Part shown: piece by piece, positions 2,954 through 64,000 of the stretch
Position numbering within the stretch: position 1 is the first letter of the stretch
Layout: every line of letters starts with the position of its first letter
NCBI GenBank assembly: GCA_039030515.1
Contig: JBCCEA010000020.1
Span: 11,110-75,109, forward strand
Direction of reading: 5' to 3'
Length of the DNA stretch: 64,000 nt
From: Myxococcota bacterium
GTDB lineage: Bacteria; Myxococcota_A; Polyangia; Polyangiales; Houyiibacteriaceae
Notes under the pieces: model-generated
What the model saw: the letters and a program-made list of their open reading frames with translations, nothing else
The model's database searches: none
What the model was told of the DNA's origin: nothing
Position numbers and translations under genes: made by a program

Positions 2954-3862
2954 ATGGAGTCTATAATGAACATAAATTCTTTGCCCTACGACGCATCAGT
3001 TCGACGGGGAACACTCATCCTTACGCTGATGGCCGCCACGGCTTGCGCTGACGATACCTCCACTACAGTTGACGCCTCCACTACAGTTGACGCCTCCTTC
3101 TCCACAACTCCATCCAGCTGTCAGCAAATTTTCGATGAGAATCCCAATGCGAGCGATGGGTCTTATGTGGTGGATCCAGGCACTGGCGACGAAACTTGGA
3201 ATTGCGTTTTCTTCAGCGATCAGAGCGACCCTGACTACGGTGGGTGGCGGCTGCTCGATGTGCTCGATGTATCGGCGTACGAGACGTCTGCACTGCGCAC
3301 TACGGAGCAATGGGCGCCCCGAGCTTGGGGCAGCACTCCATCGGGAGTTGACGAAGCATCAGACTGTGCGCTCCTTTACGGACCGATGTACGGCGGACCC
3401 ACCTGGGACCCCGGAGCAGATGGAATTTCTGTAGAGCTGGGATACGCCCTCCAAAACACTCCCCATCAAGAAGTTCGCGGCGAAATTGAACTCGCAATAT
3501 TGGATTCCTGGGACAGTCTCAGTGCCCCCGTTCCGGATACCGTAACTTTCTTTGTATTTGGTGGGTATCTCACGGACCCTCCGGTCGCTTCCGTGGACTA
3601 CATATCAGAGGGAGTCATACTGGGCTCCAGCGGGGACACCACCGCATTCCCTGTTTTTTCCTTTCAGCGAACGGACGAGGACGAGAACCTTTGCGGCGGA
3701 GTCTTTCGAGACATCGGTCGTCAAACACTCGTCGCCCGAGCCAACCGGACCGAGACCAAAGTGCTCACCGAAGACCTCACCGTGAACTTCCGCGCCAGTT
3801 TGGATGAACCCTCCGAAAACGAATCCATTGGTGTTGTTGCAGTCAGACTCATGGTTCGCTGA
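2954..3862 (+). CDS. Putative lipoprotein with fibrinogen-like (SC...DG.Y...C...GGW) N-terminal module and uncharacterised C-terminal domain
   Basis: Hydrophobic leader ending ATAC; SCQQIFDENPNASDGSYVVDP...WNC...YGGWRLL resembles the fibrinogen-like YCDxxxxGGGW module. Confidence 0.7.
   Translation: MESIMNINSLPYDASVRRGTLILTLMAATACADDTSTTVDASTTVDASFSTTPSSCQQIFDENPNASDGSYVVDPGTGDETWNCVFFSDQSDPDYGGWRLLDVLDVSAYETSALRTTEQWAPRAWGSTPSGVDEASDCALLYGPMYGGPTWDPGADGISVELGYALQNTPHQEVRGEIELAILDSWDSLSAPVPDTVTFFVFGGYLTDPPVASVDYISEGVILGSSGDTTAFPVFSFQRTDEDENLCGGVFRDIGRQTLVARANRTETKVLTEDLTVNFRASLDEPSENESIGVVAVRLMVR
3057..3097 (+). repeat. 18-bp in-frame tandem duplication (STTVDA x2)
   Basis: CCTCCACTACAGTTGACG occurs twice exactly. 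Confidence 0.9.
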
Positions 3863-4018
3863 TCAGAAGTATGAGTGGATCACTGCACGCCCTGAGTGGA
3901 TCGATCTTGATTGGCAACGGGTCTCCTGAACCCTAATCGCTTGCTCGATTGCTGCTTCGTGAGTAATACCCCGCGCAGTCTTCCGCGGGCACGCGGTAGG
4001 AATGAAAAGGTTTAGGGA

Positions 4019-6606: not shown

Positions 6607-6674
6607 CTCGCTCAACACACCACCTCGCTCAACACACCACCTCGCTCAGCACACCACCTCGCTCAATACACCAC
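6607..6674. repeat. Intergenic minisatellite, 4 x 17 bp (CTCGCTCAACACACCAC)
   Basis: Units at 6607, 6624, 6641 and 6658 with at most one substitution each; no spacers. Confidence 0.92.
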
Positions 6675-21031: not shown

Positions 21032-22816
21032 ATGAGCTTCTTTGTGCAGAGTGCGTTGCTGTGGCTCTCCGTCGCTGGTTGCTCAGAGCAGACGCATGAA
21101 ATTGCTCTCGATCTCGTCACCGATATCGCCCCGCAGGTGGATTCCGCAAGCGGCTATCTCCAAGCTCAAGTGGACCACATCACCGGCAATTCAGAGCCCC
21201 AGTTTACCTCGCCACCAGAGAACGCACTGACCTCTCCCTCGGGGAATGAAACCTATTCCTACCGAATTGCCGCGTTTGAGAAGATTCCTCGAGGACGTCA
21301 TCGCTTCGAAGTCGCACTCGTGAACGCGCAAGAAGATCAACTCGTCACGGTCCTGGCGCGACCGGTCCTGGTAGACATCAGACGCAACACCGTGGTGCGT
21401 GTCTTCCTCACCCAGGACTGCGTCGGGGTCGCGTGCGACGACCCTGACAACCAGTTCTGCCGCGCAGGCGAGTGCGTCCCGCTGGAAGTATGCTCGAGCA
21501 ACTCGCGGTCTTGTGAGTCTGCCCCTGAACCCCGACCAGAGCCAGAACCCGAGCCAAAGCCGGAGTGTGTCAGAGACAGCGATTGTCCGGCCGAAGCCTG
21601 CGAGACCTCTGTTTGTGTCTTGGGCACCTGCAATACCGAGAGCATCGAGTCCTGCATTCCTTGTCAAACTCGGTCCGATTGTCCGGTGCCGGAAACGAGC
21701 TGCGCCGAGGCTCTTTGCGAGGCGGGCCGATGCGGATCTCGACTGGTTCAGGAGCTCTGCAGTGCGCCCTTGACCTGCGTTGAAAACGTCGGATGTGCGC
21801 TCGAGTGCAGCGGTGACGCCGACTGCGTCTGTGGCACGTGCAGCGCCGGCCTTTGCGTTCCGCCTACCCCAGACGAGGACTCCTGCGCAAGTCCCGAGAG
21901 CTGCATGCCCGGCTTTGGGTGCCTTCCGCTATTGCCGGCCTTTGACTGCCCCACGAGGCTGTCCATCGCCGACACAGGTGATGACGAGTGGAGCCCTTCT
22001 CTGACGATCCTGCAGGGAACCGACGTCGAGGTGCTCGGTTTTCTGAGCGACGAGGGAGGCGCGCCCGAATATCGATTTATCTACCGCACGTCAGATTCGG
22101 ACTGGATAGGTCCTCGGTCGACCGAGGCTGCGTCACAGGTCACCTCCGGTTCCACACTCCCGATGCCGGTAGTCCTCGACGACATCCACCTCTATTCCAT
22201 CCTCGATCGGGTCGGATTCTCGAACACTTGGAGCGGCCTCGCATACGTCACCCTTCGCAGCGAAAGCTCCGGCGCGACGACGCTCCGTGAATACGTCGTC
22301 GAACTCGATGGGGATGCGATCGAACTCAACTTTGCAGCGACGCAAGAGGCCCCGATCGAAGGTGGCGCCGACGCGGATGTGATCGACGCAAACGACCATT
22401 TCAGCATGACCATCCGCTCGGGTAGCGGAGATCGGGACATCGCCTTTTCCGCTCCAGAGCTCTATCCGAGCCAGGGTATCAATTCCGACTTCGACGAAAT
22501 CTCACCCTCACCCACTCCTTCACTTCAAGCGCTTGTCTTCGCTTCGAATCGGGCGTCCCACGACGTTCAAGAGTTCCGACTCTTCGTCGGCTACCGAGAC
22601 GGAGATCGATTCGACCTGGTGCTGCCCATGAGTTCACTCGACGATCCGCAAGCAAACACGGTCGATGCTTGGCTGAGGTCCGACCTGCAGGGCAGCGATT
22701 TTCCCGACATTTTCTTCGCGTCGAACCGGGGTCCGGATGGCGATCTGGATCTCTATACTGCCGACGCCGATCCGAACGTCGCTCCGGCAACCCTCAGCAA
22801 CCGATGCACGCAGTAG
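21032..22816 (+). CDS. Cys-rich secreted lipoprotein with C-terminal PD40/TolB-like repeats (myxobacterial type)
   Basis: Lipobox VAGC after ATG 21032 (alternative ATG 20945); many C..D.DC......C..G.C modules; PEPEPEP linker; INS..DE.SPS, LVFASNR and IFFASNR...DLDLY repeats. Confidence 0.72.
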   Translation: MSFFVQSALLWLSVAGCSEQTHEIALDLVTDIAPQVDSASGYLQAQVDHITGNSEPQFTSPPENALTSPSGNETYSYRIAAFEKIPRGRHRFEVALVNAQEDQLVTVLARPVLVDIRRNTVVRVFLTQDCVGVACDDPDNQFCRAGECVPLEVCSSNSRSCESAPEPRPEPEPEPKPECVRDSDCPAEACETSVCVLGTCNTESIESCIPCQTRSDCPVPETSCAEALCEAGRCGSRLVQELCSAPLTCVENVGCALECSGDADCVCGTCSAGLCVPPTPDEDSCASPESCMPGFGCLPLLPAFDCPTRLSIADTGDDEWSPSLTILQGTDVEVLGFLSDEGGAPEYRFIYRTSDSDWIGPRSTEAASQVTSGSTLPMPVVLDDIHLYSILDRVGFSNTWSGLAYVTLRSESSGATTLREYVVELDGDAIELNFAATQEAPIEGGADADVIDANDHFSMTIRSGSGDRDIAFSAPELYPSQGINSDFDEISPSPTPSLQALVFASNRASHDVQEFRLFVGYRDGDRFDLVLPMSSLDDPQANTVDAWLRSDLQGSDFPDIFFASNRGPDGDLDLYTADADPNVAPATLSNRCTQ

Positions 22817-23028
22817 CCTCAGCAACCGATGCATGCAGTAGGCAGATCGCCCGCGAGCGGTGCGCGACTCGCCGAACCGTGAACTACATGCTTCAAAACT
22901 GCGCCACTTTGAGCCAGATTCCCTCCCCACGAACTTCGGCGCCTCGTTTTTCTGGGATCACGCACGCATATCTGTTTAGAATCATTGACGTCGTAACCTC
23001 GGCATCTTTAGTGCATAAGCGCTCCCCC

Positions 23029-25218: not shown

Positions 25219-25632
25219 CTACTTCGTCTCGGACACCGTTCGAACCAGCGCGATTCCCACAGTTCTGAGGCACTCCTGAATCGGCTCCGAATCGATGTTC
25301 GCCTGCAAATACGAAGCGAGTGCCGGCTCGTTCTCGTGAAACCAAAGCAGGGAATCCTCAACGCGGCAGGCCGAATCGAGATCCTCAAAGTCCACAACCC
25401 CCACTTCACGGCCGAAGCCTTCGCGCAAGCACTCGACGATTACCTCAGCATGAAAGACAGCGTGCATCAGCTGTGCGGGCCCTTCTTGCTCGAGCCTGAG
25501 AGACAGGTAGCGACTGGCGTGCGGTTGTGATTCGATGAAGTGGGCGACGGCGAGCTGCGTATAGCTCGGATCGGCCAGACGATTTGAGATTTCGCTTATC
25601 TTAGCCGCCACTCCAGCTTCCGAAATGGGCAT
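25219..25632 (-). CDS. Hypothetical protein
   Basis: 137-aa ORF filling the gap; protein-like composition; no recognisable motif. Confidence 0.65.
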   Translation of the reverse strand: MPISEAGVAAKISEISNRLADPSYTQLAVAHFIESQPHASRYLSLRLEQEGPAQLMHAVFHAEVIVECLREGFGREVGVVDFEDLDSACRVEDSLLWFHENEPALASYLQANIDSEPIQECLRTVGIALVRTVSETK

Positions 25633-25720
25633 GACTCAAACGCTACCCCAGCCATGCACCGGACACCATCCCCCAAAATGCAAGTGTACTTGTGAACCTT
25701 CAAGCTCCTCCTGTGCTTCC

Positions 25721-26047
25721 GGGGCGCTAGCTGTTTCGACCAACCTAAGCCCGCTGGGAGGTGGTGATGGCCGTTCAAACCCATCGAGACGCGCTCCAGC
25801 GGGTCTAGGTTGGTTCAAACAGCCAGCGCCCCCGTGGCGAGGAGGAGGAGGGTACTTAAGGTACCTAACGACGACGAGCGAAGAGGAAAGCAGCTGTTTG
25901 GGCCGTCTCAGCGACCACCCCCCAGGGGGTTTAGGTTGGTTCAAACAGCCAGCGCCCCCGTGGCGAGGAGGAGGAGGGTACTTAAGGTACCTGACGACGA
26001 CGAGCGAGGCGGAAAGCGGCTGTTTGGGCCGACATAGACCCCCTGGG
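25721..26047 (+). repeat. Structured hairpin repeat cluster (one inverted partial copy plus two direct copies)
   Basis: Direct copies 25812-25904 and 25938-26030 (the second extended by the stem 25921/26047); inverted partial copy 25721-25757; core GAGGAGGAGGAGGGTAC-TTAAG-GTACCT(G/A)ACGACGACGAG. Confidence 0.88.
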
Positions 26048-26128: not shown

Positions 26129-27625
26129 ATGAACGGAACTCGGAGCCGAACCCACACCGGCGATAGCACAGACAACCAAACCACGAACAGCGACGCAACC
26201 ATCGGGCAAACTTCCTTGACGCCAGAATGGATCGAGCGCGTTGGGATCATGAACGACTACGTGAGCATTCCCTATGCAAACGGATCTTCATTTGCCTCTC
26301 AGTTTTTGTATCGAGAACTCGAATCGAGAGGACATCAGGTGACCGTGGTGGGTCCCGCAGACCCCGACGCGACCGCAAAGACCCTCCCGCCGCGTCATGT
26401 AAGCCTCGCCTCGCTTCCCCTGCGAAACCATCCTGGCGTACATCTGCCGATGCCGAGTCGCCGAGGGCTCGCCGAACTCGCAAATCAGAAATTCGACCTA
26501 GTACTCGGTCAGACCTGTACCGCGTTGATGGACGTCGGCGTTTGGCTGCGACAAATCCAGAGGATACCGCTCGTGTTGGTCAATACGGTGCACCTACCGA
26601 GTGTGTACAACACGCTACTTCCAGAGGCGCTCAACCGAAGCGAGCAGGTCCACTCACTTTTCCAGAGCAGATTGATACCCTGGGTCGAAGGCCAAACAGT
26701 CGATATCTACAATCGAGGAGACGGTCTGATCGTGCTCTCTCCAGGATTGAAAACCTACTGGAGAGATCGGGGAGTGACCGTTCCCATTCACGTCATCGGA
26801 CGTGCCGTGGAACCCAAGATCTTTGACCGGCCTGCCGGGGCAGATCCCTACCCCTCTGGAGCCCAGAAAGGGGGTCGTCTTTTGGTTGTTTGTCGGCATG
26901 TCCGCGAAAAAAGCGTGAGTCGACTGCTGAAGACGTTCGCTCGGTACGTAAGCCCCCGTCACCCCGAAGCCAGCCTCACTCTAGTCGGCGACGGTCCCGA
27001 CCATGAGCAGTTTATCTCGGAGGCCGCCAAGCTTGGAATCGAGGAGCGCACGTTTTTTGTCGGCGAACAGTCTCAGACCGACATCATGGAGTACTACGCC
27101 CACGGAGACTTATTCGTCTACACCTCCCTTTCGGAAACTTATGGACAAGTGGTCACCGAAGCACTGTGGTGCGGCATGCCGGTAGTCGCTTTTCACGACG
27201 GGATGGGGGTTTCCGGACAGATCGCGTCAGGCGAGGATGGCGAACTGATCGACCCCAGCCGAGGGCAAGATTCAGATGAGGAGTTTGGTTCGAAAGTAGC
27301 TGCGCTCCTGGGCGACGTGGCTCGTCGTCAGTCGTTTGCCGCGGAGGCGAAGAGGCGGGCGCGGCTCAGAGCCAATCCTGAGATGTGCATCCAGCGCTAC
27401 TATGAAGCGTTTGAAGAAGCACGCATGCACCTCGGCCAAGCGGGGCCGAAGGGCTCACAGTCCTCTCGTTCAAAAGAGCCCTCTGCGTCGAAACTGAAGC
27501 CACTCGTTCCCCTCGCACGAATGGCCGGACTGCATTCATTGGTGCTGGCCCTGGGGCTGATTCGTCCACCTGCTCGAGTGAACCGCAACGGCAGCGCAAC
27601 TCCAAGCTGGACGCTTTCGGTCTGA
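26129..27625 (+). CDS. GT4-family glycosyltransferase (diacylglycerol glycosyltransferase-like)
   Basis: DY....NG, REK, LVGDGP, SETYGQVVTEALWCG (Ex7E) motifs. Confidence 0.88.
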   Translation: MNGTRSRTHTGDSTDNQTTNSDATIGQTSLTPEWIERVGIMNDYVSIPYANGSSFASQFLYRELESRGHQVTVVGPADPDATAKTLPPRHVSLASLPLRNHPGVHLPMPSRRGLAELANQKFDLVLGQTCTALMDVGVWLRQIQRIPLVLVNTVHLPSVYNTLLPEALNRSEQVHSLFQSRLIPWVEGQTVDIYNRGDGLIVLSPGLKTYWRDRGVTVPIHVIGRAVEPKIFDRPAGADPYPSGAQKGGRLLVVCRHVREKSVSRLLKTFARYVSPRHPEASLTLVGDGPDHEQFISEAAKLGIEERTFFVGEQSQTDIMEYYAHGDLFVYTSLSETYGQVVTEALWCGMPVVAFHDGMGVSGQIASGEDGELIDPSRGQDSDEEFGSKVAALLGDVARRQSFAAEAKRRARLRANPEMCIQRYYEAFEEARMHLGQAGPKGSQSSRSKEPSASKLKPLVPLARMAGLHSLVLALGLIRPPARVNRNGSATPSWTLSV

Positions 27626-34741: not shown

Positions 34742-35647
34742 ATGACAAGCGAGCCACCTATCCTAACCAAAGATCACGGCGCAGTTCGGGAGATTTGCCT
34801 CAACCGGCCGAAAAAAAAGAACGCTTTTTCTCTCGAACTCGCGAACGCGTTTCGTGATGCGTTGATTCAAGCGAGCTCAGACGAAACATGCCGGGTCCTA
34901 TTCGTTCGAGGGTCGGGCGATATGTTCAGCGCCGGAGTGGATCTGAATGTATTCAGCCGTTGGACCGAATCGATCGACGGGTACAACAAACTCCATGCCG
35001 CAGATGAACCCAGTGTCGCCGGCGACCCCAGCGCGGCCGACGACCCCAGCGCAGCCGACGACCCCAGCGCAGCCGACGACCCTTGGACCACGATCTCTCA
35101 GATCGTTGCGGTTCACGAAACGGTGCGCAACTGCCCGAAACCCACCATCGCGTGCGTGCATGGAAAAGCCGTCGGGATGGGAATGACCCTTCTGCCTCAC
35201 TTTGACCTGGTCTACGCCGCAAACGACGCATCGTTCCGAGCGGCCTTTGCCGATCTTGGATTGGTCGTGGAGCTCGGCAGTTCCTTCACCCTGCCCCGAT
35301 ATCTCGGTCCCAGTCGCGCACGTGAACTGGTGTACCGAGGCAGCCTTTTGACAGCGACCGAAGCTGCGCAGTGGGGTCTTGTAACCCGCCTCTTCGATCC
35401 GGAGCAGCTCGTTGCCGAGTCGCTGAGCATCGCCAAGGAGATCGCCCAGAAGCCGGCCAGCGCGTTGAGAGACTCTAAAAAGCTCTTTGCGATGGTGGAT
35501 GAATCGGCAATCCGTGAGGCGGCAAGCGAGGAACATAAGCTCTTGGCAGAGCGATGCCGTAGCGAAGAGACTCGGGACATCATGCGCTCGATTCTGTCAA
35601 AAACCCGGTCAAGCGGACAAAATCAGCAGAGTAAAAAAGGCGTTTAG
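34742..35647 (+). CDS. Enoyl-CoA hydratase/isomerase family protein
   Basis: LNRP.KKNA, FSAGVDL, KP.IA.VHG.AVG.G, F..LGL..E.GSS motifs. Confidence 0.9.
   Translation: MTSEPPILTKDHGAVREICLNRPKKKNAFSLELANAFRDALIQASSDETCRVLFVRGSGDMFSAGVDLNVFSRWTESIDGYNKLHAADEPSVAGDPSAADDPSAADDPSAADDPWTTISQIVAVHETVRNCPKPTIACVHGKAVGMGMTLLPHFDLVYAANDASFRAAFADLGLVVELGSSFTLPRYLGPSRARELVYRGSLLTATEAAQWGLVTRLFDPEQLVAESLSIAKEIAQKPASALRDSKKLFAMVDESAIREAASEEHKLLAERCRSEETRDIMRSILSKTRSSGQNQQSKKGV
34997..35083 (+). repeat. 18-bp in-frame tandem repeat (~5 x AADDPS) inside the enoyl-CoA hydratase
   Basis: GC(A/G)GCCGACGACCCCAGC-like units at 34997, 35015, 35033, 35051 and 35069. Confidence 0.92.
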
Positions 35648-40363: not shown

Positions 40364-40367
40364 CACC

Positions 40368-40563
40368 CGCGGCCGGCAAGAGGCGCCACAAAGCCGCTTA
40401 CCGTCTCGCGCCTCGTCGTCAGGTACCTTAGTACCCTCCTCCTCGTTGCTTCGGGGGCGCTGGCTTTCTGACACCTCTTGCCGGCCGCGTCCGCGGCCGC
40501 CCAGGCACGCCACAGCTCCGCTTACCGTCTCGCGCCTCGTCGTCAGGTACCTTAGTACCCTCC
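40368..40563 (-). repeat. Two further copies of the structured hairpin repeat family
   Basis: Hairpin 40368-40489 closed by the perfect 16-bp IR CGCGGCCGGCAAGAGG/CCTCTTGCCGGCCGCG; 46-bp core identical at 40394-40439 and 40518-40563; reverse complement matches the 25.8-kb copies. Confidence 0.88.
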
Positions 40564-63678: not shown

Positions 63679-63841
63679 ACAACGTGTAGCTTCCCGAACA
63701 ATGCTATAAGCAACGCATAGCTTGCCGGATCATTATTTCTATCGCTCGAAATAGTGTCGATTTCGAGACACAATCCTCGCCTCGACTTTATAAGTCCCCG
63801 TCTATCGGCCCCTCCCCATAGCTAACCGGATACTCCCAACA

Positions 63842-64000
63842 CCGGACCAGGTACGGTGCTGCAGCCACATCGCTGTATACGTCCAGCTGCACTGCAGCCT
63901 CAAACCGGACCAGGTACGGCGCTGCAGCTTCTTCCCGCGCCTGACCAGGTACGATGCTGCAGCCTGCTCACGCCTCTCCCCACGCCTGACCAGGCACGGC
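63842..64000. repeat. Irregular repeat array, consensus GACCAGGTACGGTGCTGCAGCC, truncated by the window end
   Basis: GACCAGG starts at 63845, 63908, 63943 and 63988, with a degenerate unit near 63881. Confidence 0.8.

Follow-up and report, generated by a model that had tools for sequence, protein, structure and literature searches.

The hairpins that lie between two divergent genes at positions 25721-26047 of a window of myxobacterial DNA belong to a dispersed repeat family with a unit of 126 nt, and this unit shares its architecture with the ERIC repeats of Escherichia coli. We read the repeat as a gene-less, ERIC-like, structure-defined and non-autonomous mobile element that would be handled as folded single-stranded DNA by an enzyme acting in trans, a reading that we rate as evenly balanced between right and wrong. 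It draws on the fixed length, free arms, variable ends and conserved centre of the unit, on wobble pairs that favor one strand, and on the duplication-free nesting of one unit in another. The window is the whole 64,000-nt stretch of DNA that was analyzed, a part of contig C20 in a 4.08-Mb assembly (G000) that is 85% complete; the sequencing runs in which it occurs come from marine metagenomes.

Locus 1 (25721-26047) is a mosaic that combines half a unit in inverted orientation with an arm fragment and with two tandem units of a subtype that carries a ladder of GA/GA tandems. The two ladder copies are direct, at 25796-25905 and 25922-26031, and over these 110 nt they are 95% identical with a period of 126. 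Copy 2 is complete at 25922-26046 on the plus strand (125 nt, CCAG...CTGG, 95.7 bits with model R2). Copy 1 (25796-25905, plus strand) has its 3' arm cut short, with the last 13 paired bases missing and one GA replaced by AA, and its fold reaches a z of only -2.15. A C/A-rich linker of a type that precedes units in tandem arrays at other loci occupies 25906-25921 (plus strand). Inverted arms are found at 25721-25765: the 5' half of a standard, non-ladder unit lies on the minus strand at 25708-25757, and a minus-strand piece of a 5' arm, of a second type (B) and beginning at unit position 3, lies at 25769-25795, where copy 1 abuts it in inverted orientation. The preliminary description was thus right about two direct copies between divergent genes and about the presence of inverted sequence, but what it took for a single inverted partial copy consists of two fragments that belong to other subtypes, and its copy length of ~93 nt must give way to a unit of 125-126 nt.

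The left neighbor of locus 1 (25219-25632, minus strand) encodes a 137-aa protein without a Pfam family that is present in 23 of 70 family genomes, and the right neighbor (26129-27625, plus strand) is a GT4 glycosyltransferase. This divergent setting is atypical, being shared by only 2 of the 37 internal loci, locus 1 included. At the 13 loci of the left-neighbor gene in relatives there is neither a GT4 gene beside it nor an element, and so they offer no orthologous empty site for locus 1. No transposase family was found among the 46 window proteins scanned, as had been stated at the outset.

The plus strand of copy 2 has a predicted fold of -80.5 kcal/mol (z -9.1, with 0 of 200 shuffles as good), compared to a far poorer -55.3 kcal/mol for the opposite strand; with DNA parameters the values are -30.4 and -23.4. 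This predicted fold contains the outer stem GGTTCAAACAGCC/GGCTGTTTGGGCC and its extension CCCAGGGGG/CCCCCTGGG, both as first described, and an inner hairpin (25964-26004, plus strand) in which all four GA/GA 2x2 loops are seen, each set off from the next by a single pair, below an apical GGTAC/GTACC stem with the TA step found throughout the family. The conserved core loop lies between the outer and inner parts, with its 5' strand (AGCGCCCCCG) at 25951-25960 and its 3' strand (GAGGCGGAAAGC), which contains the IS110 target site at other loci, at 26006-26017, both on the plus strand.

A second locus in the window, at 40367-40490 on the minus strand, holds a complete unit with a third arm type, whose end is 3 nt away from the stop codon of a gene on the plus strand, in keeping with the antisense rule described below; further fragments extend up to ~40610. 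The window also contains tandem or dispersed repeats of 18, 17, 25 and ~34 nt (34997-35086, 6607-6674, 22792-22841 and 63829-63998, respectively) that are unrelated to the family, and a 158-nt direct repeat (2658-2815 and 3706-3863, 71%) shared by the 3' regions of two adjacent genes, neither with a Pfam family, which probably represents paralogous C-termini.

The dispersed nature of the family, first surmised from the window, holds for the genome as a whole, where an iterated nhmmer search gave 230 matches in 87 loci, 112 of them near full length. Fifty of the 87 loci lie <400 nt from a contig end, and the repeat accounts for many of the assembly breaks. Ninety of 109 parsed units share one length. 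From the outside inward, the unit consists of a 29-bp stem, a bulged A with two pairs, a large asymmetric purine-rich loop, two pairs, a GCA/GA loop, a 5-bp stem, a GAA/GA or GCA/AA loop, and a 7-bp stem that ends in TA plus one pair and is closed by a 5-nt loop. A GA/GA tandem is present in the 5-bp stem of 19 of 56 distinct standard units, and most of the others have Watson-Crick pairs there. The four-step ladder, with an unchanged total base count and a shifted register, occurs in 9 of 74 well-paired units, or at 44 apices once fragments are counted as well; it is a feature of a subtype and not the defining motif of the family. Units are mosaics of exchangeable arm and inner segments. One unit (G000:C2:148729-148778) holds ~60 nt of foreign sequence between two copies of GAAGGCGG, possibly the remnant of another insertion.

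The covariation on which the preliminary description had made its proposal depend is extensive. Among 20 diverse copies from this genome, 23 of 45 pairs are altered on both sides, a count reached by 0 of 500 shuffles, which is not a probability because the copies are related. In a model-fitted alignment of 67 rows, one of which is on the wrong strand, 41 of 45 pairs are altered on both sides, with the apical T-A and A-T invariant. Pairing drops to 31-42% in controls with a slid register. The claim that wobbles pair on one strand only is borne out by the outer stems of this genome's units, with 270 G·T against 25 A·C. The purine strand is the better folder in 74 of 74 of these units with RNA and with DNA parameters alike. 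The energies cannot separate DNA from RNA. Comparison with Rfam 15, also part of that proposal, matched no family model.

Homologues of the unit are found in related genomes throughout Myxococcota. The covariance model built from the 20 copies matches in 26 of 70 family genomes, and a broader one in 27 of 148 genomes of the phylum. A core pattern finds 121 loci in 8 of the 64 parts of the GTDB collection (~1,100 estimated overall), and these matches bear paired arms; of 80 named records, 74 are titled myxobacteria or Deltaproteobacteria and 6 other groups. BLASTN, which had been suggested as the means of finding homologues, returned nothing beyond G000 in 40 relatives, and an exact pattern found nothing outside G000 in 250 genomes of the order; homologues surface only with covariance models or the looser core pattern. 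Viral contigs gave no matches to two patterns, and metagenome contigs gave none to the pattern of this genome's type and two to the terminal repeat of a longer form discussed below, neither with a core.

The 175 distinct copies from relatives that we compared were chosen by the core pattern and include close kin. All are 124-127 nt long, within the range to which the pattern restricts length. The purine strand folds better in 157 (RNA) or 165 (DNA) of them, and at least one GA/GA loop is present in 62. Their apical loops vary, with no preference for UUCG or GNRA. The termini are genome-specific (CCAG, CTGA, TAGA or GTAG), and the copy number across related genomes ranges from a few to ~230. 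What is kept across the family is the length, the purine-rich core and the apical TA, while the arms vary freely with compensation.

The position of the repeat relative to genes is strongly biased. At gene 3' ends in this genome the folding strand is antisense in 52 cases and sense in 13 (p 1e-6). Among 90 short-form copies with full flanks in relatives, it is antisense to an abutting stop in 44, sense in 1, both in 9 and neither in 36, with ~13 of the 44 antisense copies representing one orthologous nrdJ site. The stop codon is often contained in the end of the element in these relatives. Since the folding strand mostly runs antisense to the gene beside it, it would be largely absent from mRNA, and a role as an mRNA element is accordingly disfavored. 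The functions of 134 neighboring ORFs scanned around copies in relatives are unrelated, and none of these neighbors is a transposase. Judged by eye, the copies at G000:C23:36559, L082, L295, L300 and L309 lie directly next to the 3' ends of apparent tRNA genes that are encoded on the opposite strand.

Several features suggest that the units move. Clean insertion of one unit into another is seen at position 40|41, with 5 junctions compared to 17 intact sites and no duplication, and a further junction occurs at position 2|3 in 14 matches. An inverted composite recurs in 30 matches and has probably spread as a block. In the contigs of 4 DNA runs from one study, which covered three loci, no joint skipping the element and hence no empty-site allele was seen; the case for movement rests on nesting and on patchy distribution. 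HUH-type transposition of single-stranded DNA is coupled to replication; the replication-strand bias of the repeat, at 26:16, is not significant.

The nrdJ site of a sister genus shows how long a copy can persist. Among the 29 species with parsed loci, the element is present at the nrdJ stop in 22 and absent in 7. In 17 nrdJ copies of one type the arms are ~69% identical and four-fold sites roughly 62%, and 15 of 28 arm columns have changed on both sides with pairing kept on the antisense strand, where wobbles number 54 G·T against 3 A·C; transcription-linked C-to-T change on the coding strand would yield the opposite wobble bias. The last Ser codon of nrdJ pairs with the far flank, TCC with GG in 15 cases and AGC with GC in 6, with 3 discordant, and on a partly resolved tree (L087-L116) the codon has switched between TCC and AGC several times. 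This covariation is possibly due to template-switch correction that reaches into the coding sequence. Such persistence suggests that the nrdJ copies are under selection or are corrected at their site, neither of which a pure parasite would require, and a host role may have been added to mobility.

The search for enzymes in the 85%-complete G000, in which multi-copy genes may be unassembled, returned no Y1 transposase (PF01797), no reverse transcriptase (PF00078), no PF07592, PF13359 or PF13358, and no integron integrase above the cut-off (best 81 bits, cut-off 265). The preliminary description had pictured a REP/MITE-like element mobilized in trans and had brought in HUH transposases of the RAYT type. 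The dispersed copies, covariation, self-nesting and lack of an Rfam match all fit the former; the HUH/RAYT association is not supported, as no Y1 gene was found in G000 and the element is carried by 0 of the 50 Y1/RAYT-like loci that were taken from relatives. In the sister genus, 31 of 38 genomes have Y1/RAYT-like genes (L238-L267), with the element near none of them.

Two kinds of transposon do make contact with the repeat. An IS110 element (PF01548 plus PF02371) at G000:C3:161434-162720 (L012) sits inside the core segment of a repeat, and further IS110 ends are found on C4, C58 and C21. The junctions fall at one repeat position for 3 of 3 full right ends, two of which share a flank and may be one insertion, and for 2 of 3 left ends; on C13 there is a diverged left end that is not within a repeat. 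A 9-mer at the IS110 left end equals the left target flank and an 8-mer equals the donor flank, and we predict from sequence that these are bridge-RNA guides. Target- and donor-matching guides have been described for the bridge RNAs of IS621-type IS110 elements (excerpts of PMC11208160); the likeness extends to the entry at one position, and the difference is that the repeat here serves as a target, with nothing to show IS110 moving it. Small contigs of G000 (C71, C73 and C74) carry two more IS110 transposases and an ORF that by eye resembles an IS1380-type transposase, none of them linked to the repeat.

The second contact is with ISAzo13. In four more distant genomes the core is wrapped in ~27 extra bp, the boundary of the 126-nt core being an internal loop of this long form. 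One of these genomes (G366) has ~180-nt elements with ~27-bp terminal repeats and TTA/TAA duplications; ends of this kind and 3-bp duplications are also seen in the phylum's ISAzo13 elements, two of which lie immediately next to such a MITE. No transposase could be reached from lone terminal repeats in G366. A 6-kb segment (L365, G366:C18:10150-16149) is bounded by MITE terminal repeats and hairpin parts and contains two histidine kinases and a DHDPS-family gene; it is possibly a cargo transposon built from MITEs, or else two broken MITEs.

These observations bear on three other readings. The purine-rich strand might be made as RNA, whether an antisense or small RNA or possibly a mobile intermediate, with its GA/GA and GNA/GA loops acting as protein-bound RNA motifs. 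G·U wobbles account for ~14% of the predicted pairs in this genome's units, GA/GA is the commonest 2x2 loop in the 175 relatives (85, the next at 17), 85% of their unpaired interior bases are purines, and the fold is kept at the orthologous nrdJ site. The GAA/GA loop also covaries with GCA/AA (41 against 13), as expected if sheared pairs, which are interchangeable in RNA, form there. We nevertheless consider an RNA unlikely, given that no reverse transcriptase was found in the 85%-complete G000, that the apices lack stable RNA tetraloops, that a weak test found no sigma-70-like promoter at locus 1, and that copies in relatives lie on the non-coding strand inside operons, e.g., at pheS-pheT and between nuo genes. 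It is quite improbable, in our estimation, that the repeat is the inner part of an ISAzo13-family MITE whose terminal repeats have been lost, or that a DDE transposase moves it as an ERIC/RUP-type MITE, with the fold a by-product. The long form, its duplications and the abutting ISAzo13 elements recommend that explanation, and several short-form relatives start and finish with TA. However, the 126-nt form has no such ends and its nested insertions no duplication, and a DDE transposase that reads sequence would not be expected to tolerate termini that differ between genomes. Of the genomes searched for PF07592, 0 of 18 in the family and 22 of 301 in the phylum ring had it, and none was found in the incomplete G000; the orientation bias of the long form is slight (5:2 of 14, against 44:1 in the short form); and a similar terminal-repeat pair without a core exists at L366.

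A host cis-acting structure selected at gene ends, namely, a template-strand hairpin or cruciform to which a host protein binds where transcription ends, and spread mainly by gene conversion and recombination, would account for the long compensated persistence at nrdJ, for pairing that reaches its last Ser codon, and for units that are mosaics of interchangeable segments. It sits poorly with copy numbers that differ so widely across related genomes, with absence at nrdJ in 7 of 29 species and with neighbors of unrelated function, and self-nesting, like capture by transposon ends, is characteristic of mobile DNA; we hold it to be a weak contender. Against the preferred reading, folded single-stranded DNA acted on in trans, we count that no mobilizing enzyme was found in G000 and no empty-site allele was seen, the persistence at nrdJ, and the lack of a significant replication-strand bias. 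Its mobilizing enzyme, its intermediate and the cause of the stop-codon bias are what we infer. In this proposal, GA/GA tandems would form sheared pairs that replace regular pairs in the inner stem, with four such tandems in the ladder subtype. The core would be the binding site of the enzyme, and cutting and joining would take place at a set distance from it (~29 bp), making arm sequence irrelevant. In arrays such as locus 1, units would first have inserted into one another and then recombined, and ISAzo13-type ends and IS110 would use the core secondarily, as cargo and as a landing site, respectively.

By the features that define them, the repeat is not a REPIN, an attC site or, in its 126-nt form, an ISAzo13 MITE, and in behavior it appears analogous to repeats of the ERIC and REPIN type. 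REPINs and BIMEs are likewise intergenic hairpins in tandem, inverted or mosaic clusters near stop codons, with ends able to supply a stop codon, and both they and the present repeat are targeted by IS110 elements (excerpts of PMC3116915 and PMC3733652). They differ in that no RAYT occurs in G000 or beside the myxobacterial element, that the constant GTAG/CGTC tag is missing (CCAG here, GTAG in a few relatives only), and that the conserved part is the centre and not the ends. An attC site is an imperfect hairpin behind genes in which structure outweighs sequence, and its bottom strand is favored by G·T pairs and purine skew, according to excerpts of PMC5027507; we count this precedent for a skewed single-stranded substrate in favor of the single-stranded DNA reading. 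Unlike attC sites, the myxobacterial units have no RYYYAAC/GTTRRRY boxes at the ends inspected and no cassette arrays, have housekeeping neighbors and are of fixed length with a conserved centre, in a genome with no integron integrase over the cut-off. The 126-nt form is set apart from ISAzo13 MITEs by its ends, its lack of a duplication and a transposase not found in the family; the likeness lies in the ~180-nt relatives built around the same core. We found no description of the family in the literature. The main text of bioRxiv 10.64898/2026.10.21.760802 does not contain "Myxococc", "palindrom" or "MITE"; the family may appear as a cluster in its supplements.

ERIC repeats have been known since 1990-91. 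Our reference was a 15-copy E. coli K-12 repeat, identified by its containing the published ERIC-PCR primers (excerpts of PMC3696847). ERIC is likewise an imperfect palindrome of ~127 bp and rod shape, intergenic, multicopy and near gene ends (excerpts of PMC2229807, PMC3184786, PMC10969869 and PMC3696847), and in all 15 E. coli K-12 copies the purine-rich strand folds better. The two families also have a common apex, GA-GCNTAS-loop-STANGT-GA with TA at position 59; in 6 non-independent ERIC copies this motif has p values of 4e-5 to 0.035 compared to a structure-preserving null. Run unfiltered on 46 kb of ERIC loci, the myxobacterial model found 15 of 15 copies on the purine strand at 10.8-23.6 bits, with ERIC copies as its top 13 matches. 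The ERIC model in 84 kb placed myxobacterial units first (34.5, 29.9 and 25.0 bits), with copy 2 of locus 1 at 22.6 bits, and it scored up to 17.7 bits on the reverse strands of near-perfect hairpins, so part of its score reflects shape alone. The reciprocal matches are weak, in register and on the same strand. A sequence-only profile (HMM) detected nothing between the two families, and neither did a filtered whole-genome search of E. coli. The myxobacterial unit is GC-rich, its arms cannot be aligned with those of ERIC, and the units of this genome (CCAG...CTGG) lack the 5'-TA-3' at both termini that marks ERIC and show no target duplication at nested sites, with TA ends in some relatives. 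A shared architecture is shown by these data; common descent is about an even prospect, or a little short of one. We regard it as doubtful, although possible, that both rods belong to a cross-phylum superfamily in which a one-strand GA-rich core and apical TA are read by an enzyme that measures ~29 bp.

For bacterial MITEs including ERIC, transposase-driven movement had been hypothesized without experimental support as of 2007 (excerpts of PMC2229807). For a mobility assay, the myxobacterial family offers defined ends as well as a specific target site, position 40|41 of the unit itself. At one helix position the units alternate naturally between Watson-Crick pairs and GA/GA tandems, which provides a ready test of sheared-pair geometry in DNA versus RNA. 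A distant ERIC-like family with free arms reveals which features are truly conserved, namely, the length, the core loop, the apical TA and the strand. If the superfamily reading were true, the arms would be free to take any sequence, even the stop codon of the host, and the core would be one that several transposon families have captured or targeted.
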